Source: an uncultured Oscillospiraceae bacterium
GTDB lineage: Bacteria; Bacillota; Clostridia; Oscillospirales; Oscillospiraceae
Direction of reading: 5' to 3'
DNA length: 64,000 nucleotides
Assembly: GCA_964406615.1 (NCBI GenBank)
Contig: CAYOSI010000008.1
Coordinates: 4,031 to 68,030 of the forward strand
Made by a program: the position numbers and the translations under genes. Below are positions 12,342 through 59,973 of the stretch, in pieces. Position 1 is the first letter of the stretch. The number at the start of each line of letters is the position of its first letter. Below the pieces are notes generated by a model that was not told where the DNA came from, searched no databases, and saw only the letters and a list, made by a program, of their open reading frames with translations.

Positions 12342-12815
12342 TTATACATGAGGTTCCCGGAAAAAGGAAATCTTTTTTTGAAGCAGTCCGCGGCAGCCCT
12401 CCTCCACATCCTGCCAGGTGGCCTCAAAGTCGCCGGTGTACCACGGGTCGGCCACCTCGCCGGGGCGGTCCGTAAAATCCATCAGGAGGCATATTTTACC
12501 GGCGGGGTCGCCGCCGCAGATGCGGCGCATATGGCGCAGATTCGCCCGATCCATGCCGATCAGAAGGTCATATTTTTCGTAATCGTCGTTCCGGAGCTGA
12601 CGGGCCGTTTTGCCGGTGCAGTCGATGCCGTGCTCAGCCAGCTTGCGGCGGGCCGGCGGATAGACAGGGTTTCCGATCTCCTCCGTGCTGGTGGCCGCGG
12701 ATTCGATTTGAAATTCCCGCTCCAGGCCGGCCTTCTTCACCATATCCTTCATCACAAACTCAGCCATGGGGCTTCTGCAAATGTTGCCGTGGCAAATGAA
12801 TAGAATTTTTATCAT
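12342..12815 (-). CDS. low-molecular-weight protein-tyrosine phosphatase
   Basis: The N-terminal P-loop [19 protein letters not shown] carries the CX5R(S) signature. The first 19 nt after the att core belong to the inserted element (see findings). Confidence 0.9.
12785..12796. repeat. att core copy (left junction)
   Basis: TGCCGTGGCAAA, identical to 59943-59954. Confidence 0.6.
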
Positions 12816-12865
12816 GATTTATAACCCTTTATTAAGCTTTATCCCCCTATTTATCGTACATACTA

Positions 12866-12912
12866 TCTAAAAATCGGAGGGCTGCATTGTGCATATCTCT
12901 ATGCAGCCCTCC
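12866..12912 (-). terminator. intrinsic terminator after int
   Basis: 12-bp perfect stem GGAGGGCTGCAT / ATGCAGCCCTCC, followed on the minus strand by ATTTTTA. Confidence 0.65.
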
Positions 12913-12930
12913 ATAAGTTCACGGGCAAAT

Positions 12931-12990
12931 GGTGTAAAAGTGGTGTAAACAGGGGGTCATTGGTGTAAAAATGGTGTAAATTTGGTGTAC
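12931..12990 (+). repeat. five phased GGTGTA(A/C) direct repeats (candidate integrase arm-type sites)
   Basis: Copies start at 12931, 12942, 12962, 12973 and 12984, with spacings of 11, 20, 11 and 11 nt. They sit just beyond the int stop codon. Confidence 0.55.
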
Positions 12991-13015
12991 GGTTCCGAGG
13001 CCGGCTTTCCCAGTG

Positions 13016-14179
13016 TTACTGCGCCTTTGCGACGATCTCGCTGTAGGATTTTTCCGCCGCGTCGTAGCTCAGATGGGCATATATGCGCAAAGTTGTGCCC
13101 ACGTCAGCGTGGCCCATCAGGTACTGGAGCTCCTTCACTGGCATGCCCGCCTGGGACATCCGGGTGCAGAAGGTGTGGCGGAACACATGGGGCGTCGCCA
13201 CCAGGTTCTCGTGATAGGTCTCGTTGTACTTATCCACGATCCGCTTGAGGGCGTGCTCGAAATGCCCGGCCACCTTGGGCTTGTCCTGCTGATCCAGGAA
13301 GAGAAATCCGGTCACTCCATCCACGATCATCTCGATCTTCGGCTTCTTTCGATCCCGGATGACTCTCTTGAAGGCCTGGTAAACCTTTTCGTCGGTGAGG
13401 GGGATGTACCGGATCCCGCTGGCGGTCTTGGGCTTTTCGGTATAGTACTCGCAGTGCTTCGTCCGCACCAGCTGGTGCTCCACCCGCAGGCGGCGTTTCT
13501 TGAAATCCACATCGGCGATCGTGAGGCCGCACAGCTCGCTGATCCGCAGTCCGGTGCCAAGCAGGATGACAACAACGTCATAGTACCGCCGGCGGCACTT
13601 GTCCTCCTGGATGAAAGCCAGGAGCTTTTCCTCTTCTTCCACGGTGAGCGGCCTGCGCTCCACGGTGTCGTCGGGGATCACCTTCGTCAGCGTGAACGCG
13701 AAAGGGTTCTTCCGCAGAACATCCTCCTCAACCGCCATGTCGAAGGCGGGCTTGATCACGCCGCGGATGCTCTGGATCGTGCTGTACCGGCGACCGTCGT
13801 TGTGTAGCCTTATGAACCACTCCTTGGCGTCGGAGGGCTTGATCGTGTTGATTTTCCGGAAACAGAAGTCCTCGTCCTGCAAAATGTTCTGGACAAAATC
13901 GTAGTTGAGCTTGGTGTTGTATCGCATACCCTGCTTTTGGGCCAGGTACTTCTTTACGAGCTCCAGCAGGGTGATCTCACCGGCTTGATAATCCAGACCG
14001 TCGTTAAAGGCTTTTTCGATCACCTTTTCCTTATCCCGCAGATCTTCCAGTGTGTTGGCATAAACGTATTTGCGCTTGCCTCGGATATCCGTGTATCTGT
14101 ATTGGTAGTTGCCGTCGGACCGCTGGCTCTCGCCGTCCTTCAGGACACGGCCCCGGCTGTCTTTGCGCTTTTCAGACAT
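13016..14179 (-). CDS. int: tyrosine recombinase, Tn916-Int family
   Basis: The N-terminus MSEKRKDSRGRVLKDGESQRSDGNYQYRY closely resembles the Tn916 Int arm-binding domain. The C-terminal catalytic region reads HVFRHTFCT...LMGHADVGTTLRIYAH. Confidence 0.92.
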   Translation of the reverse strand: MSEKRKDSRGRVLKDGESQRSDGNYQYRYTDIRGKRKYVYANTLEDLRDKEKVIEKAFNDGLDYQAGEITLLELVKKYLAQKQGMRYNTKLNYDFVQNILQDEDFCFRKINTIKPSDAKEWFIRLHNDGRRYSTIQSIRGVIKPAFDMAVEEDVLRKNPFAFTLTKVIPDDTVERRPLTVEEEEKLLAFIQEDKCRRRYYDVVVILLGTGLRISELCGLTIADVDFKKRRLRVEHQLVRTKHCEYYTEKPKTASGIRYIPLTDEKVYQAFKRVIRDRKKPKIEMIVDGVTGFLFLDQQDKPKVAGHFEHALKRIVDKYNETYHENLVATPHVFRHTFCTRMSQAGMPVKELQYLMGHADVGTTLRIYAHLSYDAAEKSYSEIVAKAQ

Positions 14180-14283
14180 GAATTTGTATACCTCCTAACA
14201 AATTGAAAAGCGCCTGATATGATAGTTGTAGTCTATCATATCGAGGCGCTGATTTCCAGTGTTGTTTAATGATTTAAAGTATT

Positions 14284-14490
14284 TCAGATCGAATATGCCT
14301 GTTCCAAGTATCGTTCAAAGGCCTTTCGCTTGATCAGACGTTTCGTACCGACCCACAGGACGAAGGGGCAGTTCTTTTCGTCGCTTATGTCGCGGATGCG
14401 GTTGATGCCGATATTGCTGTAGGCAGCGGCCTCCTCCAGGGTGAGGTTCGCCTTCTCCCAGATGGGGACTTCGTACTTCATGGGCGTCAC
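14284..14490 (-). CDS. xis: excisionase, Tn916-Xis family
   Basis: 68 aa. VPIWEKANLTLEEAAAYSNIG...IKRKAFERYL parallels Tn916 Xis (IPIWERYTLTIEEASKYF...IKRKQFEKII). Confidence 0.85.
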   Translation of the reverse strand: MTPMKYEVPIWEKANLTLEEAAAYSNIGINRIRDISDEKNCPFVLWVGTKRLIKRKAFERYLEQAYSI

Positions 14491-15446
14491 CTCTCCAGAC
14501 CGCGAACCTTGTCATGACTCTGGTTCCGCCCGGAATACATGAACACGATTTCCGGCGGGATACGATCCATGATCCTCTGAAGATTCTCGTAGTCGGCGCG
14601 GAGTTTTGCGTCTTCCAGGAGCTTGCGGACGGATTTGTCCTGTGCTTTGTCCAGCTCCACCTGAAGCTCAGCATTATCCGTTCGCAGAGATCGGATGGCG
14701 GCGTCGTACTTCTTTGTCTGGGTCACGAACTTACCCATCGCCGGGAAGAATTTCTTGAGGGCGGCCTCCAGCTCCTCAGCCACCTTCTTGGAGTTGAAGG
14801 GATTGATGCTGTCCAGCAGACCCAGGATATATTCTCCCTGCTTGTTGAGGTGAGCAGCCTGTTTGTAGACCCGGGGCGGGATATGATCCCGGCCGGTCAC
14901 GCTGGCGCTCTCGCCGCGCTCAAGCTCCGGGTACTTCTGGACCATATGGGTCCAGAACTCATCCTGCCATTCCGTCAGACGTTTCTTGTTGCCCACGATC
15001 TCCTTGGCGCAGAGGCGGCCGTCTGCCGTGATGGGCACAAACGTCATGTGTAAATGTGGTGTCTTTTCATCCATGTGGATGACCGCAGAGACGAAGTTTT
15101 CTTTGCCGATCTTCTCCTCGAAGAATTTCATGGCGAGCTCGAAGAACTCGCGGACTTCCTTCCTGGACTTGCCCTTGAAGAAGTGAGGGCTGGCAGTGAC
15201 CAGCGTCTCTACGAGCCGGACGCTGTCAGACCGGGTGCGGCATCCGACCTCGGCGATACGCTTCTCGGCCATGGCACGGTATTTGTCGGTAGGCTCAACC
15301 AGATGGATGTTGTACTTTGACCGGCTGGTGTCCACGTCCGGGTTGCTGGCGTAGGTCTCTTTGGTTCGCTCGTCATGGGCCTCGATCTTACTGATCTCCG
15401 GGCCTTTATATTTCTTGAAACGCATGATGGCATAGGAGGGAGGCAT
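14487..15446 (-). CDS. MobV-family relaxase (Mob_Pre / plasmid recombination enzyme)
   Basis: N-terminal SYAIMRFKKYK...HDER and the HxDExxPHxH motif (VIHMDEKTPHLHMTFVP). Confidence 0.85.
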   Translation of the reverse strand: MPPSYAIMRFKKYKGPEISKIEAHDERTKETYASNPDVDTSRSKYNIHLVEPTDKYRAMAEKRIAEVGCRTRSDSVRLVETLVTASPHFFKGKSRKEVREFFELAMKFFEEKIGKENFVSAVIHMDEKTPHLHMTFVPITADGRLCAKEIVGNKKRLTEWQDEFWTHMVQKYPELERGESASVTGRDHIPPRVYKQAAHLNKQGEYILGLLDSINPFNSKKVAEELEAALKKFFPAMGKFVTQTKKYDAAIRSLRTDNAELQVELDKAQDKSVRKLLEDAKLRADYENLQRIMDRIPPEIVFMYSGRNQSHDKVRGLER

Positions 15447-15664
15447 TACACATCCCTCCTCTGCCAGACGATGTCATACCCCAGCACGTCGGCGATCTCC
15501 ATCGCTTCGTCGTACCGGAGGGAACCCCGGCTCAGCTTGCCGGAGAGGTTCGATACGCTGTCGCTGCGGCCATATTTGAGGTGGAGCATCTCCACCAGGT
15601 CCCTCATGGTCATCCCGACCAGTATGATTTTAGATTTGATAAAATTGCGCAAGTTAAACTCCAT
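15446..15664 (-). CDS. small helix-turn-helix protein
   Basis: 72 aa with an XRE-like pattern (MTMRDLVEML...NLSGKLSRGSLRYDEAMEIADVLG). Its stop overlaps the mob start. No clear RBS. Confidence 0.55.
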   Translation of the reverse strand: MEFNLRNFIKSKIILVGMTMRDLVEMLHLKYGRSDSVSNLSGKLSRGSLRYDEAMEIADVLGYDIVWQRRDV

Positions 15665-16078: not shown

Positions 16079-17479
16079 TTACGACGTAGGCGTCACCAAT
16101 GGCTTGATACCCCAGTAACCCCATACCCGGCGGCCCTGGGCGTTGGTGACCTTGTTGTTGTACTCGACGCCGTAATCCTCCTGGTGGCCGATGAGGTACA
16201 TACCGAAGCTCCGGGCGGGTCGGGGTTTGAATGCGTTGTCCTCGCACCACAGGCAGTAGATGTCATACAGCTGTTTGGCCGTGATCTTCTCGCCTGACTC
16301 AAAGGCTATGTATCCCTCGGAGCTCAGAAAGTCAAGGATGTTGTTGGCGTCCTTCTTGACCTCGGTGAGGTTTGCCTGGGCACGGTCGCTGACGGTGAAA
16401 GCGTAGTCGTTGGCGATGAGCCGTCGCAACCCCTCCAGCGCCCAGAGGACGATACCCTCCGCCTCGGCGCACATCTTCTCCGCCAGGAAAGGATCGTCCT
16501 TTCGGTCGGCAGGCTTGTCCCGGGTAGAGAGGATCAGCTGTCGGCGGTAGAAGCCGTCGCTGTGGTCGTACAGGGATTGCAGGTCGCCGTTGCCGAAGGC
16601 CATGAACCGGACGAAGATCTGCCCCTGGTAGCTCTGGACGCCCTTGCGCTCCAGATCCATAGGCATCTCCGCCGTGACGATGGACTTAACGTGATGGGTC
16701 TGGGCCAGAGCCTCCAGCTTCATGTCATCGTCCACCATCACCAGCTCGTGCTCAAGGTCCGCCCGGGCGAAGGGGCTGGCCTCCACCTTGGCGATGCTGC
16801 CGTTTTTCATGTTCTTACCGAAGATGGCCTGCATGACGAGACCGATCCGGCTCTTGCCCTCGCCGCCCTTGCCCTTGAGTACGAGCATCTTCTGGCCCTT
16901 TGTGCTGGGGATGAGGCAGTAGCCCATGTACTCCTGCAGGGTGGGGATGTCGTCCGGGTACAGGAGCTCGTCCAGAAAATGCAACCAGGTAACTGGCGCC
17001 GGCGCATCTTGGTCATATCGGATCGGGAGCCGGTTAAGGCAGTAGTCCTTTTCCTCGGTGAAGCCGCCGTCCAGCATCAGCGTACCGTTGGCGAAGTGGA
17101 TGCGATCCTGCTGTATGGGCAGCGGCGGCGACCAGCACTCGATCCGCAGAGCGTTTAGGAGGTTCCGGGCCGTCTTGGCGAGGCCTGTGGTCAACACGGG
17201 CTTGATCTTATCGAGGATCTGCTTGCGTATCTCATCCTCGTCTGTGATAGGGCCGTCCACGGTGAAGAACTCGCCGCGGATGCAGATCATGGGATGCTCC
17301 CGCAGAAACTCCGCGCAGAACTTCACCTCGTCCAGGTGCTTGCCGTCGTACCACGCCGGGTACTCGGGTTCGTCGGGTTCGTCGTCCTCGTCCTCGGCTT
17401 CTTCGATTTCTGTGATCTCGTCATCATCATTGTCTTCGATCTCGTGCCACTCACCTTCGATAACCTTCGATTCATCCAT
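16079..17479 (-). CDS. phage/plasmid primase-helicase (P4 / D5 family)
   Basis: 466 aa with an acidic N-terminus and a Walker A motif (LVLKGKGGEGKSRIG) in a D5-type NTPase context. Confidence 0.8.
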   Translation of the reverse strand: MDESKVIEGEWHEIEDNDDDEITEIEEAEDEDDEPDEPEYPAWYDGKHLDEVKFCAEFLREHPMICIRGEFFTVDGPITDEDEIRKQILDKIKPVLTTGLAKTARNLLNALRIECWSPPLPIQQDRIHFANGTLMLDGGFTEEKDYCLNRLPIRYDQDAPAPVTWLHFLDELLYPDDIPTLQEYMGYCLIPSTKGQKMLVLKGKGGEGKSRIGLVMQAIFGKNMKNGSIAKVEASPFARADLEHELVMVDDDMKLEALAQTHHVKSIVTAEMPMDLERKGVQSYQGQIFVRFMAFGNGDLQSLYDHSDGFYRRQLILSTRDKPADRKDDPFLAEKMCAEAEGIVLWALEGLRRLIANDYAFTVSDRAQANLTEVKKDANNILDFLSSEGYIAFESGEKITAKQLYDIYCLWCEDNAFKPRPARSFGMYLIGHQEDYGVEYNNKVTNAQGRRVWGYWGIKPLVTPTS

Positions 17480-17497
17480 GGTGTTTACTCGCCTCCT

Positions 17498-17970: not shown

Positions 17971-18804
17971 ATGCCATATCTCAAGGGTAACATACAAGAT
18001 CGGATCACGGATCTGCGGGAGCAAAACGGATGGTCGAAGACAGAGCTGGCGGAGCGTATCGGTATCGACGCCTCCCGCATGGGGCGGATCGAGTCCGGCG
18101 AGACGAAGAGCGTCGGCGACGATGTGATCCTCGCGCTGGCAAAGGCCTTCGGCGTGTCCACGGATTTCCTGCTGGGCGTCAGCGATGATCCCGAGCCGAA
18201 CAATTATAACATCAAGGATCTGGGGCTGAGCATCGAGGCGGCAAAGAATCTGTATACGGAGAAGATCGACCCGGACGTGCTGAACCTCATGATGGAGGAT
18301 CCGCGGTTCGGAACGCTGACCTACATGATCAGTCGCTACCTCCATGACGTTATGGCCGAGGGATACAAAGCGCAGAGCAAGCTGTACAACATGACCGCTG
18401 CCATGATCGCCGGGATGAATCTGCCCGGAGCGCGGCCGGCGGCGCAGGAGATCATCTCCTACCGCCCTGATGTACAGACAGAACTCACTCTCATCGAAAA
18501 CGGATTTGCCGCGATCGTAAAGGACATCAAAAAGAAGATCAGCGGAAAAGTCGCGGAGAGCCGCGCCGAGGTTTTGACCAAGAGCGTATTCGTTCAGATA
18601 AAGAACGAACTGCAGAAAGGCGTCGGCAGACAGTCTCTGCGGAAGATCACTGCCAACCAGTTGGCGGACGCCGTGGTCACGGCCATGTCCGATTTTGATG
18701 GCGTGACACCCGAGATGCAGAAGAATTTGAAGGCGGCGCTGCTCCCGTATTTTTCAAAACCACTCAAGAGGAAGATGGATGACAAACGAGGAACTATGCG
18801 TTAA
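17971..18804 (+). CDS. XRE-family transcriptional regulator with long C-terminal domain
   Basis: HTH ITDLREQNGWSKTELAERIGIDASRMGRIESGE. RBS AAAGGAGGG. Confidence 0.85.
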   Translation: MPYLKGNIQDRITDLREQNGWSKTELAERIGIDASRMGRIESGETKSVGDDVILALAKAFGVSTDFLLGVSDDPEPNNYNIKDLGLSIEAAKNLYTEKIDPDVLNLMMEDPRFGTLTYMISRYLHDVMAEGYKAQSKLYNMTAAMIAGMNLPGARPAAQEIISYRPDVQTELTLIENGFAAIVKDIKKKISGKVAESRAEVLTKSVFVQIKNELQKGVGRQSLRKITANQLADAVVTAMSDFDGVTPEMQKNLKAALLPYFSKPLKRKMDDKRGTMR

Positions 18805-19435
18805 GGCCCAGGCCGGCGATCTCGACGCACGCAACGAGTTGATCCTACAGAACATCGACTTCATACGGGCACAGGCGTGGGATCTGATCCTGCGTTACCC
18901 GACCTACGATATCCGGGAAACGGATCTGGAGCAGGAGGGCTGCTTCGGTATGATGCGTGCTGTGAGCACCTTCGACCCGGCGCGCGGGAGCAAATTTCTG
19001 ACCTATGCCAAGTGGTGGATCGTGAAATACATGAAGAAGCACATCAAAGGCGATGTGAAGAATCAGCCGCCTGCTCATACGATCCACCACACGATTTGGT
19101 TTGAGAATCGGATCAAGGCAGACGAGCGAAAATACGATCTGCGGCCGCAAGAGGTTCGCGTCTTCTGCTACATTCGTGTTGAGCAGCTTTACGTCGGATT
19201 CCAAAAACTCACGCCCCGTCAGCAAGATTATCTCCGCTATCGCTTCGGCTTCGATGAAGAGGATCATGAGCGTTCGTTGAAAGAGACCGCTGAGTATTTT
19301 CATCTTCGCGTGACCCGAGCCAGGAGGCTGGAACGGGAAGCGCTTAATTGCCTGCGTCATTACATAATCAAGGATGACGAGAGACGCTCCGCGCCTCCAA
19401 AGCCGGAGACAGAAAAGATGCTGATCGGCTGGTGA
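18779..19435 (+). CDS. sigma-70 family factor (Tn916 Orf7-like regulatory sigma)
   Basis: Region 2-like FIRAQAWDL...GCFGMMRAVSTFDPARGSKFLTYAKWWI and a region 4-like C-terminus. Overlaps the XRE gene by 26 nt. Confidence 0.8.
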   Translation: MTNEELCVKAQAGDLDARNELILQNIDFIRAQAWDLILRYPTYDIRETDLEQEGCFGMMRAVSTFDPARGSKFLTYAKWWIVKYMKKHIKGDVKNQPPAHTIHHTIWFENRIKADERKYDLRPQEVRVFCYIRVEQLYVGFQKLTPRQQDYLRYRFGFDEEDHERSLKETAEYFHLRVTRARRLEREALNCLRHYIIKDDERRSAPPKPETEKMLIGW

Positions 19436-39041: not shown

Positions 39042-39125
39042 ACCGAAACACAAAGCAACCGACTTACATCCAAGGCGGCGCGGTACTGCCGCGCCGTCCT
39101 TTTGTTACCATGAAAGGACGCCGAT

Positions 39126-40094: not shown

Positions 40095-41002
40095 ATGAAG
40101 TGACGGGAAAAAACAGCATCGACACAGGGCTTCGCCTGGAGGACGATATCCGGCTGAAAAAGGAAACGAACTTCAAGCAGATGCTCAAGCGGCTGGCCAA
40201 AAACAAGCTGGCTGTCACCGGCGGCATCGTATTTCTGATCCTGTGCCTCATTTCCCTGTGCGCGCCTCTGATCGCGCCTTATGACTATTCCGCCATCGAT
40301 CCCGCCAACAAATATCTGCGGCCCTGCGCCGAGCATTTGTTCGGCACGGATCAGTACGGACGGGACATCTTTTCCCGCGTCATCTACGGTGGGCGCTGGA
40401 GCCTGACGCTGGGCCTCGCATCCACGCTGGTCAGCACGTTCCTGGGCGTCATCGTCGGCTCTGTTGCGGGCTATTTTGGAGGTAAGGTGGACATGGTCAT
40501 CATGCGCTTTATCGACATCGTCCAGTGCATCCCTGGCATCCTGCTCACGATCTGTATCTCCGTGGTCCTGGGCTCCGGCGTGGTCAACACCGTCATTGCC
40601 ATGTCCTTCGGCAGTATATGGGGCACGGCGCGCATGCTGCGAGGACAAATCCTCATGGTGCGCGAGAGCGAATATGTGGAGGCGGCGAGGGCCACCAATG
40701 TCAGCTCCTTCCGCACCATTGTGAAATACGTTCTGCCGAACTCCATCCAGCAGACTATCATCGGCGCCTGCATGAGCATCGGCGGCATGATCACCCAGAT
40801 CTCCGGCCTGAGCTTTCTCGGTCTCGGCGTGCAGCCGCCTCTGCCGGAATGGGGCGCCATGCTGAGCGACGGCCGGAACTTCCTTCGATATTATCCCAAT
40901 ATGCTGCTAGCTCCTTGCATCATGATCGCATTGACGATCCTCTCCATCAGCCTCTTTGGCGACGGGCTGCGTGACGCCATGGACCCCCGTATGAAAGATT
41001 GA
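40091..41002 (+). CDS. ABC permease (OppC/DppC/NikC-like)
   Basis: Contains HLFGTDQYGRDIFSRVIYG. ATGA overlap with the upstream gene. Confidence 0.9.
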   Translation: MNEVTGKNSIDTGLRLEDDIRLKKETNFKQMLKRLAKNKLAVTGGIVFLILCLISLCAPLIAPYDYSAIDPANKYLRPCAEHLFGTDQYGRDIFSRVIYGGRWSLTLGLASTLVSTFLGVIVGSVAGYFGGKVDMVIMRFIDIVQCIPGILLTICISVVLGSGVVNTVIAMSFGSIWGTARMLRGQILMVRESEYVEAARATNVSSFRTIVKYVLPNSIQQTIIGACMSIGGMITQISGLSFLGLGVQPPLPEWGAMLSDGRNFLRYYPNMLLAPCIMIALTILSISLFGDGLRDAMDPRMKD

Positions 41003-41014
41003 GGTATTTGTGCT

Positions 41015-42145
41015 ATGGATGAAACAATAATCACAGAAAAAACCTCCGAGGAAAAACGGGGACATCACGACCATCATGAGAGGCGTCTCCACAAAAAGGA
41101 GCATCATGGCGAGAAGCACGGCGAGCATCCCCATCATCGTCATGACGGCACGTTTCTGCGGGTGAAAAACCTGTGGGTGGAATATACCGCGGGCAAGCGC
41201 ATCGTTCACGCGGTGAACGGCATTTCCTTCGACATCAAGCGCGGTGAGTCTCTGGGTGTGGTGGGCGAGTCCGGCTGCGGAAAGAGCACTATCGCGAAAG
41301 CGCTTTTGCGCATTCTGCCGGATCACGGCGCCCGGATTGCCGGGGGCGAGATCTGGTTCAAGGGGCAAAATCTGGTAGAGCTGCCCGAGGCGGATATGGA
41401 GCATATCCGCGGCGCGCAGATCTCCATGATATTCCAGGATCCCATGACCGCTCTGAACCCGGTCAAGCGCATTCTGGATCAGGTGGCGTCGGTCATCCGG
41501 CTCCATACCCCCGGTATGAGCAAAAAGGAGTCCGAGGCGGCCGCCATTGATATGCTGAAGACCGTTGGCATCAAGGAAGACCGCGTGCGGGAGTACCCCC
41601 ACCAGTTTTCCGGCGGCATGCAGCAGCGTGTAGAGGTGGCCATCGGCCTCTCCTGCCACCCGGATCTGCTTCTGGCCGACGAGCCCACCACGGCCCTGGA
41701 CGTGACAATTCAGGCGCAGGTGCTCGACCTCATCCGCGATCTGATGGAAAAGCAGAACACGACGCTTCTGCTCATCACCCATAACCTGGGTATCGTGGCG
41801 GAGATGTGCGATTATGTTGCGGTGGTCTACGGCGGCGAGATCGTGGAGTACGGCTCCAAGCGGGAAGTATTCAAAAACCCCAGCCATCCCTATACCATCG
41901 GCCTGTTCGGCGCGGTACCCAGCATGCAGTCCGCCGGGCAGCGTCTGAAGCCCATCGACGGCGTCATGCCCGATCCCAGCGATCTGCCCGCGGGCTGCAA
42001 GTTCCACACCCGCTGCCCCTATGCCACACCGGCGTGCAGCGAAGGGAACGTCCCTGTGGTCGATCTGGGCGGAACCCACCGCTGCCAGTGCCATAACATC
42101 GAGGCGGTCCGCGCCGCGCAGGAGAAGGAGGAGGTGCAGGTATGA
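41015..42145 (+). CDS. ABC ATPase (OppD/NikD-like) with ~45-aa His-rich N-terminal extension
   Basis: [17 protein letters not shown] and [12 protein letters not shown]. The N-terminus reads [42 protein letters not shown] lies 9 nt upstream, and there is no alternative downstream start. Confidence 0.88.
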
Positions 42146-43110
42146 GCACGCTGCTGGAACTGAAAGGCCTCAAACGCTATTTTGATACGCCCAAGGGCAA
42201 GCTCCACGCGGTGGACGATATCAACATGTCCTTCGAGGAAGGCACGACCATGGGCGTGGTGGGCGAATCCGGCTGCGGCAAATCCACCCTGGCCCGGACG
42301 ATCATCCACCTGCAGAATCCCACAGACGGGCAAATTCTGTATAAAGGCGAGGATATCACCTACCCCAATCGGAAGCAGCTGAAACGGCTCCGGGAGGAGA
42401 TGCAGATCATCTTCCAGGACCCCTACAGCACCCTGAACCCCCGCTATACGGTGGAGGATACACTCAAAGAGCCGCTGGTCCTGTCCGGACAGTATGAAAA
42501 GGCATCCCTCGATAAGCAGATCACAAAGCTCATGGACATGATCGGCATTTCCGGGCGGCTGCGCATGGCGTATCCCCATGAGCTTTCCGGCGGCCGCCGT
42601 CAGCGCGTGGGCATCGGGCGGGCGCTGGCCATGAACCCCAAGTTCATTGCCTGCGACGAGCCGGTGGCGAGTCTCGACGTGTCCATCCAGGCGCAGATCA
42701 TTAATCTGCTGGAGGACCTGCAGAAGGACTTTGGCCTGACGTACATGTTTGTGACCCACGACCTGAGCGTGGTGCGGCATATCTCCCACAACATCAGCGT
42801 CATGTATCTGGGGCAGCTCGTGGAAACGAGCCCCTCGGAGGAGCTGTTTTCCAACCCGCTGCACCCCTACACGAAGGCGCTGATCTCCGCGATCCCGTCC
42901 ACGGATATCGACGCTCCCCGAAAGCGCATTCGTCTCCAGGGGGAGCTGATGAGCCCCATCAATCCCGAACCCGGCTGCCGTTTCGCTCCGCGATGCCCGT
43001 ATGCGGCGGAAGCATGCTCTCAGCCGCAGAAGCTGGAGGAGATGGCTCCCGGCCATTTCGTTGCCTGCTGCCGGGCAAAGGAACTGAATGAAAACGATCA
43101 GGAGAACTGA
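42142..43110 (+). CDS. ABC ATPase (OppF/NikE-like)
   Basis: [17 protein letters not shown] and FIACDEPVASLD. ATGA overlap with the upstream gene. Confidence 0.9.
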   Translation: MSTLLELKGLKRYFDTPKGKLHAVDDINMSFEEGTTMGVVGESGCGKSTLARTIIHLQNPTDGQILYKGEDITYPNRKQLKRLREEMQIIFQDPYSTLNPRYTVEDTLKEPLVLSGQYEKASLDKQITKLMDMIGISGRLRMAYPHELSGGRRQRVGIGRALAMNPKFIACDEPVASLDVSIQAQIINLLEDLQKDFGLTYMFVTHDLSVVRHISHNISVMYLGQLVETSPSEELFSNPLHPYTKALISAIPSTDIDAPRKRIRLQGELMSPINPEPGCRFAPRCPYAAEACSQPQKLEEMAPGHFVACCRAKELNENDQEN

Positions 43111-43113
43111 ACT

Positions 43114-45666
43114 ATGAACGGACAAATCTTGAAAGCCGGCGCGGGCAAAGCGGAGATCGTATTCCCCGCCGATATGTTTCCCACCGATAAGCTGTACGGA
43201 GTGCACGATGCTCCCTGCGCTCGCATCCTTGTATTTGACGGCGGTCTGCGGGCCGCGATCGTGAGTCTGGAACTGGTGAACGCTCCGGACGAGTGCATCG
43301 AAAAAGCCCGGAACATCGTCCGGAATACGACCGATACTCCCTATGAGAATGTTTGGGTCCATGTGACCCATGCCATCACCACGCCTCATGCTCCCGGTGG
43401 ACCGGGCGGTCCCAAGCCCGGCGGTCCCAAGCCGCCCATGGGCGGAGGCTTTAAGCCCGACCCCGACGCGCCGAGAAAGCGGAAGCTCTTTGTCGCCGCC
43501 ATCGAGAGCGCGGTAACAGAGGCGGCGGATCAGGCGGCGGCGTCCTTCCGGGAAGCGGTCTTCGGCGTTGGCACAGGGGACTGTCTCGTCAATGTGAACC
43601 GGGACGAGGAGACCCCCTTCGGCTGGTGGGTCGCTCAGAACCCTGCGGAGATATCCAACAAGACCATGACCGTCCTCCGCTTCGACGGCGCGGACGGGAA
43701 ACCCATCGGCGCGCTGGTGAGCTATGGTCTCAAGCCCTGCGCGATCGACATGGCCGGACAGAGTTCGGAGGATCGCATGGTCTCGGCGGATGTGCCGGGC
43801 TATGCCTGCCATATGGCGGAGGATACCTTCGGCGCTCCCTGCCTGTTTTGCATGAGCGCGGCGGGCGATCAGGTCCCCCGGGAACAGGCGTTTTACGACC
43901 GCATCACGGAGAGCGGCGAGGTGGAACGCGTCGATCTTGGCGTGGAAAAGGGCTATGAGATCGTGGAGCGTCTCGGAGCGGAAATGGGAGCGGACATCCT
44001 TCGCATTCTGGATTCTGTCTCCGACAAGACGGGCGAGGCCGTTACCGACCATGCCTCGGGCAGTATCCTGTGCCAGCAGAAGAGCCGCAGTCCCATCCCC
44101 ATGGTGCCGCAGAAGGAGCTGGAATTCAAAAAAGAGGGCGAGGACGTCCTGGGCGCGGAGGCGATCCGACTGGGCGATGTTGCTCTTGTCGCCATCAAGC
44201 CGGAGACGAATACCCGGACAGAGCTGGAGCTGAAAGAGGCTTCTCCGTTTGCTCACACGCTGCTTATCTCCATGGTGAACGGCGGCATGAAGTACATGCC
44301 CGACGCCTCTGCCTATGAGCGGATCACATGGGAAGCCCAAAGCTCCATGCTCATGCCCGGAACGGCGGAAAAGTGGGTAAGGAGAGTGACCGATATGCTG
44401 AAGGATCTGAAAGAGGAGAAAAAAGCGCCCAAGATCACCGTGGTCGCGGAACCATTCTCCGACGGCCAGCGCATCACAAAGGCGATCCTTACCTTCGAGA
44501 CGGAAGTTCCCAATGTGGATGAAATCGAGGTCGTGGACCGTACCATAACCGATCGGAAGGTGGAAGGAAACACGGTGACCCTCACCCTGTCTATGGACGA
44601 TAAAGCGGCCAAGATCATTCCGGATTTTGAGTTCAAGCCCGGCGGACCCTTTGGAAACGGCGGCCCTGGTGGTCCTGGTGGTCCTGGTGGCCCCGGTGGT
44701 CCTGGTGGTCCTGGCGGTCCCGGTGGTCCCGGCGGGCCCGGAGGTCCCGGCGGTCCTGGTGGTCCCGGCAGACGCGGACCCACGCGCATGGGGAAAAAGC
44801 GCCGCCCGATCGCCGTGGAGGTCAAACTCCCGGGGTATGACGCGCCCATCGCGTCCACCAAGGCCATCCAGCCCGTGATCGACGATTTCGTGCAGGGCGA
44901 ATATAAGGGGATGCTCTACAACCTGTTCGTCCCCAAAGACTATGACCCGGCGAAGAAGTATCCGCTGGTGCTGTTCATTCCCGACGCGGGACCCAATGGC
45001 GACGATCCGCTGCTGGCTCTGGCGCAGGGCATCGGCGGTACCTGCTGGGCCGATCCTGCAGAGCAGGCAAAGCATCCCTGCTTTGTCCTGGCGATCCAGG
45101 TTCCCTCCGGCGTGCATCTGACGGACGACGATTATACCGTCTCCGCGGAATTTGACATCATCATGGAGCTCTTTGAGAAGATCGTGTCGGAGTACAGCAT
45201 CGACCGCAACCGGCTGTACAACACCGGGCAGTCCCAGGGCTGCATGGCGTCCTGCGAGATGGATATTCGCTGGCCGGATCTGTTCGCGGCGTCCATGCTG
45301 ATTGCCGGTCACTGGGATGTTCAGAAAATGGTGAAGCTTACCAAGAAAAAGCTGCTGTTTGGCTTGTCGGAAGGCGGTTTGAAGGAATATCCCAACTTCA
45401 ACGAGATCACCGACGGACTGGAGGCCCAGGGCGTAAAGGTGGCCCGGATCCGGCTGAATTTCCGGGATGGATGGGAAGTGAACGACGCCAAGGTTCGGGA
45501 GGGCATCGGCGACGCGCAGGTGGTCTATATCATCTTTGATGAGGCAACGGCTTTCCCTGACGACGGCAAAGAACGCGTCAAGATCCTGCACCACCAGCGC
45601 GGCTGGGAGCTGACCTATTGCCTGGAATCCGCCCGGGATTGGATATTCGCGCAGTCGAAGGAGTAA
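43114..45666 (+). CDS. cytoplasmic fusion protein: ceramidase-like N-terminal domain + Ig-like domain + (Gly-Gly-Pro)12 hinge + alpha/beta-hydrolase (COG4099-type)
   Basis: No signal peptide. KAGAGKAEIVFP...GVHDAPCARILVF resembles the neutral/alkaline ceramidase N-terminus. The C-terminus has YNLFVPKDYDPAKKYPLVLFIPDAG and GQSQGC. AGGAGAA RBS, and the gene starts 3 nt after the oppF-like stop. Confidence 0.8.
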   Translation: MNGQILKAGAGKAEIVFPADMFPTDKLYGVHDAPCARILVFDGGLRAAIVSLELVNAPDECIEKARNIVRNTTDTPYENVWVHVTHAITTPHAPGGPGGPKPGGPKPPMGGGFKPDPDAPRKRKLFVAAIESAVTEAADQAAASFREAVFGVGTGDCLVNVNRDEETPFGWWVAQNPAEISNKTMTVLRFDGADGKPIGALVSYGLKPCAIDMAGQSSEDRMVSADVPGYACHMAEDTFGAPCLFCMSAAGDQVPREQAFYDRITESGEVERVDLGVEKGYEIVERLGAEMGADILRILDSVSDKTGEAVTDHASGSILCQQKSRSPIPMVPQKELEFKKEGEDVLGAEAIRLGDVALVAIKPETNTRTELELKEASPFAHTLLISMVNGGMKYMPDASAYERITWEAQSSMLMPGTAEKWVRRVTDMLKDLKEEKKAPKITVVAEPFSDGQRITKAILTFETEVPNVDEIEVVDRTITDRKVEGNTVTLTLSMDDKAAKIIPDFEFKPGGPFGNGGPGGPGGPGGPGGPGGPGGPGGPGGPGGPGGPGGPGRRGPTRMGKKRRPIAVEVKLPGYDAPIASTKAIQPVIDDFVQGEYKGMLYNLFVPKDYDPAKKYPLVLFIPDAGPNGDDPLLALAQGIGGTCWADPAEQAKHPCFVLAIQVPSGVHLTDDDYTVSAEFDIIMELFEKIVSEYSIDRNRLYNTGQSQGCMASCEMDIRWPDLFAASMLIAGHWDVQKMVKLTKKKLLFGLSEGGLKEYPNFNEITDGLEAQGVKVARIRLNFRDGWEVNDAKVREGIGDAQVVYIIFDEATAFPDDGKERVKILHHQRGWELTYCLESARDWIFAQSKE
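44659..44769 (+). repeat. in-frame 9-bp microsatellite-like repeat encoding (GGP)12-G
   Basis: GGY GGY CCY repeated 12 times with synonymous variation. Confidence 0.9.
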
Positions 45667-45677
45667 ACACAAGAAAA

Positions 45678-45704
45678 AGCGGAGAGTCCCTCTCCGCTTT
45701 TGTT
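45678..45704 (+). terminator. intrinsic terminator after the fusion hydrolase gene
   Basis: AGCGGAGAG-TCCC-TCTCCGCT followed by TTTGTT. Confidence 0.6.
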
Positions 45705-45723
45705 CCATGAAGGAGATCGCATT

Positions 45724-46551
45724 ATGAAAATATCGGAGATCATCGAAAAGCTGCGCCAGTTTCATCCGCAGATCGATGAGGAGAAAACCTGCGACATCGT
45801 GAAATACGGCGATCCGGATAAGGAATGCACCGGCATCGTGACCTGCTGCTTTGCGTCCTCGGATGTGATCCGTGAAGCCGCCCGCCTCGGCGCGAATTTC
45901 ATCATCACCCACGAACCGCTGTTCTGGACCCACGAGGACGAGACGGACTGGCTCGCGGACAGCGCCATTTTCGCCGCAAAAAAGAAGCTGCTGGATGATG
46001 CGGGCATCGTTGTCTGGAGAGATCACGACCATATCCACGGCGGGAAGCCCAGCAATAATCCGCCTGCGATCGACGGCATCTACTACGGTATCATGAAGGA
46101 GCTTGGATGGGACGAGTATAAGCTCGACTATCCCAACAAGCCGCTTGTCTTCCAGCTCCCGGAGCGGGACGCCACCGAACTGGGGCTGGAGCTGAAGGAG
46201 AAGCTGAACCTGAACGGTGTCCGGATCGTGGGCGATCCGCACGCCAGAGTGTCCCGGGTGTTCTTCTGTGAACACATCAAGGATCACGACTGGAAGGAAA
46301 AGGAGAAGATCCGCAAGACCGACACCGAAGGGATCGATGCGGTCATTCCGCTGGAGATGATCGACTGGTCTTTGGCGGCGTTTGTGCGGGATTCGTGCCA
46401 GCTGGGCCGGCCGCGGATCATGTACAACGTGGGGCATTTCAACTTCGAGGAGCTGGGCATGAAATACATGGTGCGGTACCTGCCTCAGATCGTGGGGGAT
46501 GTCCCGGTGCATTATGTGCCGTCCGGCGATTCCTTTAACTTTATTCTGTAA
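45724..46551 (+). CDS. NIF3-like (dinuclear metal centre, GTP cyclohydrolase 1 type 2 homolog) protein
   Basis: MKISEIIEKL...GIVTCCFASSDVIREAARLGANFIITHEPLFW. ATG at 45724 lies 8 nt after AAGGAG. Confidence 0.75.
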   Translation: MKISEIIEKLRQFHPQIDEEKTCDIVKYGDPDKECTGIVTCCFASSDVIREAARLGANFIITHEPLFWTHEDETDWLADSAIFAAKKKLLDDAGIVVWRDHDHIHGGKPSNNPPAIDGIYYGIMKELGWDEYKLDYPNKPLVFQLPERDATELGLELKEKLNLNGVRIVGDPHARVSRVFFCEHIKDHDWKEKEKIRKTDTEGIDAVIPLEMIDWSLAAFVRDSCQLGRPRIMYNVGHFNFEELGMKYMVRYLPQIVGDVPVHYVPSGDSFNFIL

Positions 46552-46564
46552 GAAGGCGAGTTCC

Positions 46565-47491
46565 ATGAACGCTATCGATTTTTCCTGCAAGCACGACATC
46601 CTCATACGTCACAAGGATGGTACGCTCACGCCGATGGACGAGCCGTATTATGAGGTCGAAAAAATCGCCCCCGACACATGGAAGATCATGAGCTCCGGAG
46701 ATTATCATTATCTAGTGGCCGGGGACGATGAAGGTATCGCTATCGATACCGGATACGGCGCGGGAAATCTGCGGGAGTTTCTGGAAGAGCTCTGCGGCAA
46801 GCCCGTGAGGAAGGTCATCAACACCCATCACCACTTCGATCATACCGCCAATAACAGCTACTTTGATCTGGCGTATATGGCGGAGGAGTCCGTGGAGCTG
46901 GCATGCAGACCGTATCCCAGCTTTGACGGTATTGAGTTTCCACGGGATTACGCTGTTCAGATCGTGACGGACGGGGAGATAATTCCCCTTGCCGGACGCG
47001 AGCTTCCGGTATTCAAGATCGGCGACCATACGGCGGGCGGCATTGCGATACTGGATCCCCGGGAGCGGCTGCTCTTCACCGGCGACGAGATCATGCCGGA
47101 AGGAAAGATGATCGGCGGCACAGTCGAGAAGTTCGCGCGGGATATGGAAAAGCTCATGCTCCATCGCGATGCGTTTGACCGTGTATGCGGAGGCCCCGAG
47201 ATGCTGCCCGGCGAACAGGTCGAGATGTTTTACGAGGCCGCGAACAAAATCCTTGCTGGGGAGCAGTCGCCGGCAGAACCGCGGAAGCCCCGGGGGCCGT
47301 TTCACAAGGATGAGGGTTCGGAGGGGCAGAAAATATACGACTGTCAGCATCCCCATCCAGAGGATGTACCGGGCGGACCCGGCAAAGGCGGACCCGAAGG
47401 TCCAAAGCCGCTGCAGTTGGGCGATATGGGCGAGTTTGTTTACAAGGGACTGCGTTTCGGATATCGGAAGGATAAGCTGCGGGACAGCTGA
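46565..47491 (+). CDS. MBL-fold metallo-hydrolase
   Basis: Contains VINTHHHFDHTANN (HxHxDH). No signal peptide. Confidence 0.8.
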   Translation: MNAIDFSCKHDILIRHKDGTLTPMDEPYYEVEKIAPDTWKIMSSGDYHYLVAGDDEGIAIDTGYGAGNLREFLEELCGKPVRKVINTHHHFDHTANNSYFDLAYMAEESVELACRPYPSFDGIEFPRDYAVQIVTDGEIIPLAGRELPVFKIGDHTAGGIAILDPRERLLFTGDEIMPEGKMIGGTVEKFARDMEKLMLHRDAFDRVCGGPEMLPGEQVEMFYEAANKILAGEQSPAEPRKPRGPFHKDEGSEGQKIYDCQHPHPEDVPGGPGKGGPEGPKPLQLGDMGEFVYKGLRFGYRKDKLRDS

Positions 47492-58067: not shown

Positions 58068-58080
58068 AAACGAAAGGACC

Positions 58081-58109
58081 TTGCATTCTTCTCCGGCATC
58101 CGATATAAT
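58081..58109 (+). promoter_or_regulatory. sigma-70-like promoter for the DUF2798 gene
   Basis: TTGCAT, a 17-nt spacer, then TATAAT. Confidence 0.5.
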
Positions 58110-58221
58110 GATCGGCGGAAAAGGCAAGACCTTTGGAAACCGGAAATAAGTCGTATGCGGCGTAGTCTGTTTCGTCAGGCTGCGCCGTTTCTTCATACTT
58201 AGTTTTCGGAGGTATCGTAAA

Positions 58222-58746
58222 ATGCCAAAAACCAAAGGACAGGGGATCATGTTCGGTGTCATCATGTCGTATGCCATGGCCATCGGGATGGAGGTGTACA
58301 ACATTGCCATCAAAATGGGCTTCAGCCTGAACATCGGCGGGCTGTCCTCCATGACGAACGCTGTGTTCCCTGCGGCGCTGGTAGAAGCGTCGTACATGGG
58401 TCTGTTTGTGTTCCTGTTCTCCAATCTCTGGGGCAACCGGGCCGGGGCGGCCTTCGCGGCAAAGCACACCGATCCGGAAAAGGACAATCCGTATTTTTGC
58501 CAGCTCATGCGGCAGGCGGGGACGGTGGCGGTCATGTGTCCCACCATGAGTCTCGTGGCCTCGATCCTGTTCAATGTGATTCTGGCGAGGCAGCCGGTGA
58601 CGCAGCTCCCGGCCATCTGGGTGGGGACGGTGTTCAAGAACTTCCCCATGGCGTTTTTCTGGAATATGTTCGCCGCCGCGCCGTTTTCCCGCTGGCTGTT
58701 CAGCCTGGTGTATCGGGAATATCAGGAGACGAAAACAGAGTCATAA
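58222..58746 (+). CDS. DUF2798-like membrane protein
   Basis: MPKTKGQGIMFGVIMSYAMAIGMEVYN... RBS GGAGG. Paralog of 23059..23535 and 58918..59625. Confidence 0.7.
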   Translation: MPKTKGQGIMFGVIMSYAMAIGMEVYNIAIKMGFSLNIGGLSSMTNAVFPAALVEASYMGLFVFLFSNLWGNRAGAAFAAKHTDPEKDNPYFCQLMRQAGTVAVMCPTMSLVASILFNVILARQPVTQLPAIWVGTVFKNFPMAFFWNMFAAAPFSRWLFSLVYREYQETKTES

Positions 58747-58750
58747 CGCC

Positions 58751-58780
58751 TTGACAAATCGCGCAAACGCCCGATATAAT
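58751..58780 (+). promoter_or_regulatory. sigma-70-like promoter for the second DUF2798 gene
   Basis: TTGACA, an 18-nt spacer, then TATAAT. Confidence 0.55.
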
Positions 58781-58917
58781 GTCACGAAAAATCAAATACA
58801 GCTGTGAACGACACATGTAGCGCCCGGCGCGTAAATCTGATTACGGTACACCATGATCGGAGGCGGGGCCGCTGCCTGTGTCGTTTATTGTTTTGAATGA
58901 GAAAGTGAGGAGTTATT

Positions 58918-59625
58918 ATGCCAAGAAATCAGTTTCAACGTATGTTTTTTGCCTTTGTCACCGTGGTCATCACGGTGCACGCCTACGTGTTCTACAGCCT
59001 GTATGTGGTGAACGGGAACACGCTCATGCAAATCACAGGTGCGTCCAGTGTCCTTGGTGCGATCCGCGCCCAAGGCGGCGTGTATATGTTTGGACGGATG
59101 CTGCCCATCTGGGCGGTCATCCTGGTGGAATTCTGCCTAGCCTTCGCACTGGAAAACCTCGTGGGAAGCCCGGCCTCCTTCAAACTCGCCTGCCGGGTGT
59201 TCAATCCTCAGAAGAACCATCCCATGATGTTTGAAACGGCCATCATCTGCGCCACGGTGGGCATCATGTGCCCGGCCATGAGCCTCATCGCCGCGGGGCT
59301 GTACTATCCGTACTATGCCGGGTTCAACCTCTGGACGTTTCTGGCAAACTGGCTGAAGCTGGTGTGCTTCAATTTCCCCTTCGCGTATTTTACCCAACTG
59401 TTCTTCATCCAGCCGGCGGTGCGGACGATCTTCAAGCTGGTGTTCCGCAGGGATATCAAAGCCCGTGCCCGGGAGGCCCGGCAGAAGGAGCAGAGCGGCA
59501 AAAAGCTCATGCCGGAAAACGAGGCGGACGCTGTGGCGGACATCTTCAAGCGGATTGACGAGATCAAGGAGGAACTGCGGGAGGAGATCGTCGAGAGTCT
59601 CATGGAGTCTCGGGATAAGAAATAA
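58918..59625 (+). CDS. DUF2798-like membrane protein with charged C-terminal tail
   Basis: MPRNQFQRMFFAFVTVVITVHAYVFYS... RBS GAGGAG. The C-terminal ~55 aa are Lys/Glu/Arg-rich. Confidence 0.7.
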   Translation: MPRNQFQRMFFAFVTVVITVHAYVFYSLYVVNGNTLMQITGASSVLGAIRAQGGVYMFGRMLPIWAVILVEFCLAFALENLVGSPASFKLACRVFNPQKNHPMMFETAIICATVGIMCPAMSLIAAGLYYPYYAGFNLWTFLANWLKLVCFNFPFAYFTQLFFIQPAVRTIFKLVFRRDIKARAREARQKEQSGKKLMPENEADAVADIFKRIDEIKEELREEIVESLMESRDKK

Positions 59626-59800
59626 ATAACTCAGATGAAAAGCGTCTGCGCGAAGTTGGGGCCCTGCCAATTCCCGGGCGTGCAGGGGGATCGCCACCGC
59701 AGAGGAGACAGAAGGATCACCCGGAAAGCAGTGGCGAGATATCGTGATATGATGTTGGGAAGTGACTGGTCTTGAGGAAAGCTCGATCTCGCAATAAAAC

Positions 59801-59845
59801 CCATGGAGGACATCGTTCGATCGACGGTGTCCTCCATGGATTTTT
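59801..59845 (+). terminator. long hairpin terminator near the element's right end
   Basis: CCATGGAGGACA...TGTCCTCCATGG followed by ATTTTT. Confidence 0.6.
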
Positions 59846-59861
59846 CATATCAGGCGCAGGT

Positions 59862-59879
59862 GGTGTAAAAGTGGTGTAT
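59862..59879 (+). repeat. two GGTGTA(A/T) repeats spaced 11 nt (right-end arm-type sites)
   Basis: GGTGTAAAAGTGGTGTAT. The 12-mer AAAAGTGGTGTA is shared with 12937-12948 and 19544-19555. Confidence 0.55.
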
Positions 59880-59913
59880 TATTGCACGATTTTACTGAAA
59901 AAGGTCAGTATTT

Positions 59914-59973
59914 TCAAGGGCTGCAGGGTTCTTGATCAATGATGCCGTGGCAAACGAAAAGTATTTTAATCAT
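59914..59973 (-). pseudogene. displaced original 5' end of the LMW-PTP gene (19-codon stub)
   Basis: The minus strand reads GGAGGATTTTTGTTT ATG ATT AAA ATA CTT TTC GTT TGC CAC GGC, encoding MIKILFVCHG. It then diverges and stops. The intact gene begins [10 protein letters not shown]. Confidence 0.65.
59943..59954. repeat. att core copy (right junction)
   Basis: TGCCGTGGCAAA, identical to 12785-12796. Confidence 0.6.

Follow-up and report, generated by a model that had tools for sequence, protein, structure and literature searches.

The 64,000-nucleotide stretch of DNA analyzed here, in the following termed the window, stems from an uncultured Oscillospiraceae bacterium (contig CAYOSI010000008.1, positions 4,031 to 68,030). 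Positions 12797-59954 of the window, a segment of 47,158 bp when one core copy is counted, are very probably an integrative and mobilizable element (IME), which has integrated site-specifically at a 12-nt core inside the gene for a low-molecular-weight protein-tyrosine-phosphatase (LMW-PTP) and which carries a replacement for the start of that gene. An initial annotation of the window had proposed such an insertion.

The empty site and the junctions of the element

The core TGCCGTGGCAAA is present in exactly two copies in the window, and on the minus strand an ATG lies 19 nt beyond either copy, at 12815 and at 59973. Both had been described in the initial annotation and could be located. The following features are found at the two junctions:

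12785-12796 (unstranded): core copy beside the phosphatase body, region of the crossover; TTTGCCACGGCA in gene orientation; identity with copies of the element from other hosts falls exactly here
59943-59954 (unstranded): core copy at the far end of the element; contigs from other hosts are 97.6-100% identical up to here and unrelated beyond
59914-59973 (minus strand): stub open reading frame (ORF) of 19 codons, host codons 1-10 (MIKILFVCHG) fused to element DNA; matches the 5' end of the empty site

The core spans phosphatase codons 7-11, including the codons for the catalytic Cys-His-Gly. The alignment of the two junction regions that had been suggested as a check revealed 27 identical nucleotides out of 31 from the ATG through the core, followed by one mismatch, a match of CATT, and the end of all similarity. 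The right ATG (59973) lies behind GGAGGA, and its reading frame encodes MIKILFVCHG before it diverges at the core and stops after 19 codons, so that the translation agrees with the earlier description of this stub. A third copy of the core was not found inside the window, even when one mismatch was allowed.

It had been predicted that an empty site exists in related genomes. This site was indeed found, with the predicted sequence, on contig L082 (sample SRR10165006), which joins the right flank straight to the left flank without the insert. Positions 1-3335 of L082 are 99.25% identical to window positions 63272-59938, and positions 3300-10284 are 99.37% identical to window positions 12815-5831. 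In a three-way alignment, L082 switches at TTTGCCACGGCA from the sequence of the right flank to that of the left flank, and its junction reads exactly ...GGAGGATTTTTGTTTATGATTAAAATACTTTTCGTTTGCCACGGCAACATTTGCAGAAGC. Therefore, the crossover took place inside the 12-nt core, i.e., within codons 7-11, and the proposal of a crossover within the P-loop codons proved to be correct. The core is identical in attL, attR, and attB, and the host codons of the stub are the same as those that open the empty-site allele. These junctions establish, at the level of sequence, site-specific recombination at the 12-nt core in the P-loop codons. The predicted attP junction of the element would read ...AAAGGGTTATAAATCATGATAAAAATTCTATTCATTTGCCACGGCATCATTGATCAAGAACCCTGCAGCC..., and the predicted attB junction ...ATGATTAAAATACTTTTCGTTTGCCACGGCAACATTTGCAG....

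The occupied allele is represented by L001 from SRR10165007, a neighbouring run of the empty-site sample SRR10165006. The empty site was reached via protein P0121, the only other cluster member of the truncated public call P0001. According to exact-protein look-ups, neither the window phosphatase nor the sigma factor encoded in the right flank is on record.

The rebuilt phosphatase gene and its expression signals

The gene and the signals around its old and new start are as follows:

12342-12815 (minus strand): rebuilt LMW-PTP gene, 157 aa, from the translation; homologues carry Pfam LMWPc PF01451
12797-12830 (minus strand): element-supplied start, from the sequence; Shine-Dalgarno (SD)-like site AAAGGG at 12825-12830, ATG at 12813-12815, codons 1-7
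12877-12913 (minus strand): terminator-like hairpin from RNA folding; perfect 12-bp GC-rich stem followed by GAUUUUUAG
59983-60051 (minus strand): displaced native signals, contiguous with the phosphatase gene in L082; ribosome-binding site (RBS) GGAGGA at 59983-59988, promoter-like TCCACA-17-TAAAAT at 60051-60023

Codons 1-7 of the rebuilt gene and everything upstream stem from the element, and host DNA begins with the core and makes up the body. The initial annotation had stated that the phosphatase stays intact, and this holds true for the ORF of 157 aa, which differs from the L082 allele by one conservative substitution, i.e., Ile7 in the window instead of Val7 in the empty-site protein P0121. 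The translation contains the CX5R(S) P-loop C8-HGNIC-R14-S15 (CHGNICRS) as well as a D123-P-W-Y loop. The matches to the NCBIfam models for Wzb and ArsC were below the equivalog cut-offs; therefore, membership in the LMW-PTP superfamily can be assigned, but not a substrate. Preservation of function is established at the level of the phosphatase coding sequence only.

In the empty-site allele on L082, the region with the promoter-like site, the RBS, and the first codons is contiguous with the phosphatase gene, in agreement with the claim that these native signals have been displaced by 47 kb. The displaced promoter-like site has a TG motif ahead of its second hexamer. The new SD-like site AAAGGG is weaker than the displaced GGAGGA. 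A motif upstream of the element-supplied ATG, AAAGGCTTATAAAGGGTTATAAA, is conserved in related elements. The hairpin with its U-run at 12877-12913 follows int and precedes the phosphatase ATG by about 60 nt, and it was not called by a simple terminator scan because its loop comprises 13 nt.

The element had been suggested to supply a substitute N-terminus as well as a substitute promoter. The first part stands, as codons 1-7 travel with the element. The second part is not supported by the sequence, as no sigma-70 consensus was found between int and the phosphatase ATG (12816-13015) and the terminator-like hairpin lies in this region. Transcription of the phosphatase gene after integration must begin in element DNA, and the expression level of the rebuilt gene may well differ from that of the empty-site allele. 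The weak start probably also has a practical consequence for annotation. The public call of the occupied allele, P0001, is 141 aa long, begins at Met17, and thus omits the catalytic Cys8, and the empty-site allele P0121 has been called at full length with 157 aa. The Met17 call is probably a side effect of the weaker RBS supplied by the element.

These signals also allow a more far-reaching view, namely, that integration is not neutral and that the family uses the P-loop codons as a landing pad to gain control over the phosphatase gene. Its grounds are the position of the gene behind the int operon, the upstream hairpin, the lack of a recognisable promoter, and the weaker RBS. If this were true, phosphatase expression would be lowered or tied to the regulatory state of the element, the displaced host promoter with its strong RBS would give rise to a 19-residue peptide and to transcripts that enter the element at its far end, and tyrosine-phosphatase signalling and the behaviour of the element could be coupled. 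We regard this view as speculative and rather unlikely.

The same element in other hosts and relatives at the same target

An integrase that is 99% identical to that of the element (P0122) was found on five Joint Genome Institute metagenome contigs, four of which (L114-L117) reach past int. From the mobility genes through ATGATAAAAATTCTATTCATTTGCCACGGCA, their DNA is 97.4% identical to the window. Identity falls to only 70% in the phosphatase body that follows the core, and other genes lie downstream of it (SpoIIID, MazE). The element end that was carried to this other host includes ATGATAAAAATTCTATTCATT. As the element end is fused to a phosphatase body of 70% identity, the rebuilt N-terminus and its upstream region travel with the element.

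Corresponding results were obtained for the far end. The last cargo protein is unchanged on nine metagenome contigs (L105-L113), which are 97.6-100% identical to the far end in the window up to the core and unrelated beyond. The stub reads TTG-TRILFVCHG on eight of the nine contigs and is different on the ninth. The last 3 kb of the cargo accompany the far end in another host, and the same element is present in at least three junction contexts, the window included.

One of these junctions has additional features. On L107 (positions 2040-2663; the same junction is present on L105-L111 and L113), the TTG stub lies behind arm-like repeats of TTTACTAC, a sequence resembling the 3' tip of int is found (GGTAGTAAAAC), and the next gene encodes a DUF4256 protein, not an integrase. 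This junction looks like a remnant of an older resident element.

Relatives with integrases of 50-73% identity occupy the same position in many Oscillospiraceae, and for some of them both ends and the stub are present on one contig. Two surveys were performed, a genome survey of 80 loci that were fetched by the phosphatase, and a metagenome survey of loci that were fetched by the integrase. In the genome survey, a family element is situated directly upstream of the phosphatase gene and in the same orientation at seven loci, all of which belong to Oscillospiraceae or other Clostridia. An integrase of 49-60% identity is encoded upstream of the phosphatase in L009, L010, L011, L027, and L065, L034 has retained only a 57-aa integrase fragment and Xis, and L006 has only an Xis match at the contig edge. 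No stub was found within 10 kb upstream of these occupied loci, because the elements exceed the flank that was fetched or the contigs end. In the metagenome survey, an RBS, an ATG, M-x-K-x-L-F-x-C-H-G, and the core follow right after int wherever the downstream sequence sufficed, and the phosphatase gene lies right after the integrase gene in nine loci. L089, L090, and L094 contain complete relatives of about 10 kb, which have one shared far end with arm repeats of their own TTTACAC type and three different host stubs. The layout of the family is int stop codon, phased arm repeats, a conserved AAAGGCTTATAAAGGG-like motif, ATG, and core. Altogether, dozens of related elements were found at the same phosphatase codon position.

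Other arrangements were also seen at this site. In L092 (4200-4520), a relative of about 10 kb abuts another element: the core links its integrase-side end to the far end of the latter, which has TTTACTAC-type arm repeats and a ParA-like gene. The two form a tandem array at one attachment site. In L096 (2446-2640) and L101 (1538-1594), the sequence runs past the start codons and the core into non-phosphatase DNA; in L096, arm repeats of its own type follow the core, an attP-like junction of an excised circle or of tandem copies.

Both ends of the element contain direct repeats, and the far end also contains a hairpin:

12930-12989 (plus strand): five TGGTGTA(AA) repeats with a spacing of 11 nt in most cases, situated between the int stop codon and the core; putative arm-type integrase-binding sites
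59861-59878 (plus strand): two TGGTGTA(AA) repeats, 65-82 nt inside the far-end core copy; putative arm-type sites
59801-59839 (unstranded): hairpin at the end of the cargo, 17-bp stem with T-runs on both sides; plus strand from a terminator scan, minus-strand reading deduced from the sequence

The usual form of the repeat is TGGTGTAAA, all seven copies have the same orientation, and no TGGTGTA cluster is present in the window apart from the two element ends. An 18-mer, TGGTGTAAAAGTGGTGTA, is common to both ends (12930 and 59861) and belongs to the longest dispersed repeats of the window. It was absent from the initial annotation and adds to the evidence from the 12-mer. Equivalent repeats are found at the same place in related elements. 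The position and phasing of the TGGTGTA(AA) repeats fit a putative role as arm-type sites for the N-terminal domain of the integrase. The hairpin at 59801-59839 is a putative bidirectional terminator, which would insulate the element from the displaced host promoter. Inspection by eye also revealed a pair of motifs in relatives, CTTGATATT at the far ends and AATATCAAG at the integrase-proximal ends, which might be inverted core-type sites, but no claim is made for them.

It might be argued that no integrase has been at work, i.e., that the repeat is coincidental, or that the 47 kb are ancestral and were lost in the L082 strain by ordinary recombination between short repeats. Exact direct repeats of 12 nt or longer are common in the window, with 362 maximal ones, 233 of which have a length of exactly 12 nt, and with one mismatch permitted, 5 of 100 shuffled sequences matched the pattern at least twice. 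However, the significance of the 12-nt repeat comes from its context, namely, the extended in-frame similarity, the 18-nt repeat inside each end, and the empty site elsewhere. Moreover, the ends of the same segment recur in other hosts, where identity is lost precisely at the core, arm-type repeats are present at both ends, integrase and excisionase genes adjoin the junction, and dozens of related elements share the codon position. An origin by chance or ordinary loss is thus hardly credible, and the junction data from several hosts refute it for practical purposes.

Gene content of the element

Likely genes were selected by third-position GC content (GC3) and compared with Pfam and NCBIfam, so that 36 ORFs of the element were scanned. 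The mobility module comprises:

13016-14179 (minus strand): tyrosine integrase of the Tn916/Tn1549 family, 387 aa; Pfam Phage_integrase PF00589 1.6e-37, Integrase_DNA PF02920 2.1e-21
14284-14490 (minus strand): excisionase of the Tn916-Xis type, 68 aa; Pfam Tn916-Xis 7.6e-25
14487-15446 (minus strand): MobV-family relaxase (mob), 319 aa; Pfam Mob_Pre 2.6e-54, NCBIfam MobV 170 bits (cut-off 100)
15446-15664 (minus strand): small DUF6471 protein, directly upstream of mob; Pfam 5.7e-06, 26.6 bits, just under the curated cut-off of 26.8
16079-17479 (minus strand): P4-type primase/helicase, 466 aa; Pfam DUF5906, D5_N and Pox_D5, NCBIfam primase_Cterm 112 bits (cut-off 108.7)
17971-19435 (plus strand): regulatory pair from the Pfam scan, divergent from the int module; HTH_3 protein at 17971-18804, sigma-70-like factor at 18779-19435

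The int/xis module occupies one end of the element, with 220 nt separating it from the left core copy, and the genes for integrase, excisionase, relaxase, DUF6471 protein, and primase are all on the minus strand and read toward the phosphatase gene. The integrase contains Integrase_DNA (PF02920), the N-terminal DNA-binding domain of the Tn916 type for arm sites, and its N-terminal domain matches PDB entries 1BB8 and 1B69. It matches PDB 6EMY, which we take to be Tn1549 Int, with an E-value of 6.6e-87, and in the alignment the motifs GLRISE, HVFRHTF, GHAD, and RIYAH contain the conserved Arg, His-x-x-Arg, His, and Tyr. The integrase is 45.6% identical over its full length to that of the vanB element on pMG2200, in which a sigma factor gene and an HTH gene likewise lie ahead of xis-int. 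The DUF6471-mob gene order is the same in L115, and the DUF6471 protein may be a relaxosome accessory protein. The primase has a putative function in replication of the excised form. A search for an origin of transfer upstream of mob yielded only unremarkable candidate inverted repeats.

The remainder of the element is cargo:

20153-59625 (unstranded): cargo of about 40 kb; Pfam and NCBIfam scans, DUF2798 from the gene table

It encodes MBL-fold hydrolases, several esterases (EstA-Ig/S9, carboxylesterase, BD-FAE, polyhydroxybutyrate (PHB)-depolymerase-like), two flavoprotein oxidoreductases, two MarR regulators, and an AraC regulator. Transport functions are represented by an ABC exporter gene pair, a MatE pump, and an Opp-type ABC importer (37341-43110), and further products are NIF3, a ceramidase-like protein, a Sel1 protein, and two DUF2798 proteins. 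One ORF of the cargo region, 43114-45666, encodes 850 aa with a C-terminus like PHB-depolymerase-type esterases, and 9-nt repeats of the GGTGGTCCT type lie within it (44665-44714, plus strand). The 1528-aa ORF at 42019-46605 on the minus strand is antisense to real plus-strand genes, and its codon-position GC identifies it as a spurious high-GC ORF.

No families of conjugation pores, coupling proteins, or phage structural proteins were detected among the 36 scanned ORFs, and specifically no match to capsid, terminase, tail, portal, VirB4, VirD4, FtsK/TcpA, or VirB6. The sole hint at conjugation was TrbL_2 with an E-value of 0.0075, below threshold. The absence of conjugation-pore and phage genes together with the presence of a MobV relaxase means that the gene content is that of an IME, not that of an integrative and conjugative element (ICE) or a prophage. 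The segment has its own int and xis at one end, attL and attR repeats matched by an empty attB, and a relaxase without mating-pore or coupling-protein genes. The size of 47 kb would fit a prophage or a self-transmissible ICE as well, and integrase and excisionase are of the type found in the conjugative transposons Tn916 and Tn1549. However, the scan speaks against both, and MobV relaxases are typical of mobilizable plasmids and IMEs, so that we consider a prophage or an ICE extremely improbable. A prophage was rejected in view of the lack of capsid, terminase, portal, and tail Pfam families among the scanned ORFs.

Another alternative would be a composite, i.e., an IME of about 7-10 kb, from int to the sigma factor, which has been joined by a decayed neighbour or a captured host island and now forms one unit with it. 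Close relatives with both ends on one contig are indeed only about 10 kb long, and the GC content of the cargo is about 60%, like that of the host flank, compared to 53-57% in the mobility module. In addition, tandem arrays and decayed remnants are found at this site in other genomes (L092, L105-L113), and such arrays and remnants have been described as common in Firmicutes. However, neither a third core copy, even with one mismatch, nor an internal cluster of arm-type repeats is present, the empty site lacks the entire 47,158 bp, and the last 3 kb of the cargo move with the far end in another host. A composite origin is therefore quite improbable, and it would alter only the history of the element, not its present nature.

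Several points weigh against the assignment as a site-specific IME that carries a replacement gene start. The size of 47 kb is large for an IME. The 12-mer repeat by itself is not above chance in the window. In other hosts only the two ends of the element were seen, about 3-4 kb each, and an exact look-up of an esterase from the middle of the cargo found it in the same sample only, which says nothing on travel of the cargo. Neither an excised circle nor an attP junction of the element itself was found; one pattern scan of viral contigs for attP gave no match. The missing sigma-70 consensus and the terminator-like hairpin ahead of the rebuilt gene belong here as well. Finally, mobilization, origin of transfer, and helper element are all deduced.

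Proposed mechanism of integration and transfer

In the proposed mechanism, the integrase recombined the attachment site of the element with the chromosomal core TTTGCCACGGCA in codons 7-11, as the comparison of the alleles shows, and its N-terminal domain probably binds to the TGGTGTA(AA) repeats at both ends. Because the integrase-proximal end carries a look-alike 5' end with an SD-like site, an ATG, and near-identical codons 1-7, integration restores the reading frame and regenerates a full-length phosphatase gene with the change from Val7 to Ile. The native promoter, the RBS, and the first ten codons are left behind 47 kb upstream, in the form of the 19-codon stub. Reversal of the integration by the excisionase would yield a circle, which may be replicated by the P4-type primase. 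The MobV relaxase would nick the excised circle, and transfer would proceed via the mating pore of a co-resident conjugative element; such a helper is invoked because the island has no pore of its own. Excision would thus be followed by mobilization in trans, for which the near-identical copies in at least three junction contexts are indirect evidence.

Comparison with known elements

Integration at a 5' end with restoration of the gene is the rarer case for IMEs (PMC5704250), as had been assumed in the initial annotation. As it has already been described for IMEs, the class of mechanism is known. Therefore, the mechanism is not new, but represents a known, less common style of integration. 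What stands out is the target, the unusually large cargo, and the unusually complete comparison, which includes an empty site, junctions from several hosts, and a broad family.

The element shares many features with Firmicutes IMEs that have a single tyrosine integrase, i.e., int and xis at one end, a relaxase without a mating pore, a possible replication gene, adaptive cargo, and the occurrence of tandem arrays at one attachment site (PMC5704250). MOBV1 IMEs are abundant in Faecalibacterium, a relative of the host (PMC12084326). The element differs from the known Firmicutes IMEs in its target, the P-loop codons at the 5' end of an LMW-PTP gene, and, with 47 kb, from its own relatives of about 10 kb; it is recognized as an IME here from sequence alone. 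No report of an LMW-PTP gene as attachment site was found in the searchable literature, which is a limited negative, and the P-loop codons of a phosphatase appear to be an undescribed target.

SGI1, the mobilizable genomic islands (MGIs; 3' end of trmE or yicC), and the IMEs targeting guaA and rpsI duplicate the end of a protein gene (PMC5704250). As in the present case, the attachment site lies in a conserved coding sequence, and a look-alike gene end keeps the frame. However, those elements replace the 3' end, and the gene keeps its own promoter and start, whereas here the 5' end is replaced, and therefore the element has to supply promoter, RBS, and start codon alike.

The similarity to Tn916 and Tn1549 concerns the integrase with its Tn916-type N-terminal arm-binding domain (1BB8/1TN9), the Tn916-type Xis, and the direct repeats inside both ends, which resemble the arm-type sites of Tn916. 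Tn916 and Tn1549 insert without homology at a large number of AT-rich targets, and the coupling sequences that they leave are not identical. In contrast, the element uses one GC-rich 12-nt core and always the same codons. A conjugative transposon of the Tn916/Tn1549 type was therefore rejected, because the element is site-specific, with fixed target codons and a core that is identical up to and including attB, and because no conjugation module was found among the scanned ORFs. A relative of these low-specificity integrases has become strictly site-specific, and a comparison could locate the determinants of target choice.

As the occupied and the empty allele differ by one 47,158-bp unit and the element is present in several hosts, the case shows that an element can reside inside an essential-looking coding motif while the gene stays intact. 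The family appears to have a wide distribution among gut Oscillospiraceae, and its cargo of esterases, transporters, and oxidoreductases can reach 40 kb; it represents a route for metabolic gene flow in the microbiome. For genome annotation, the example illustrates that a weak start signal of an element can lead to a public phosphatase call that lacks the catalytic cysteine.

Flanking regions and relatives of the phosphatase

The right flank (window positions 60000-64000) has a GC content of 40-45%, compared to about 60% in the left flank and the element. Besides a probable MerR-type regulator, as judged by eye from the translation, the flank encodes an ECF (extracytoplasmic function) sigma factor, a membrane protein, an ABC ATPase, and a permease; these five genes read toward the phosphatase gene. 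As the right flank is also present in the empty-site strain (L082 reaches window position 63272), it is not part of the element; it may be an older acquired island. In the left part of the window, the ORF at 158-2032 on the plus strand contains tandem repeats of about 186 bp (1429-1910), with a 131-nt exact copy at 1592 and 1778. The repeats are rich in Trp-Tyr-Tyr codons, and the product is probably a cell-wall-binding repeat protein.

The phosphatase protein is 70-80% identical between Oscillospiraceae and metagenome-assembled genomes labelled Prevotella or Bacteroidales (L013, L015, L024, L028, and others), none of which carries the integrase at the phosphatase locus. This high identity across phyla could be due to horizontal gene transfer or to contamination during binning. 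In one Prevotellaceae locus (L040, 5764-5874), the intact gene is followed, 1.4 kb downstream, by a second phosphatase-like sequence, a partial one of 37 aa that is 70% identical.

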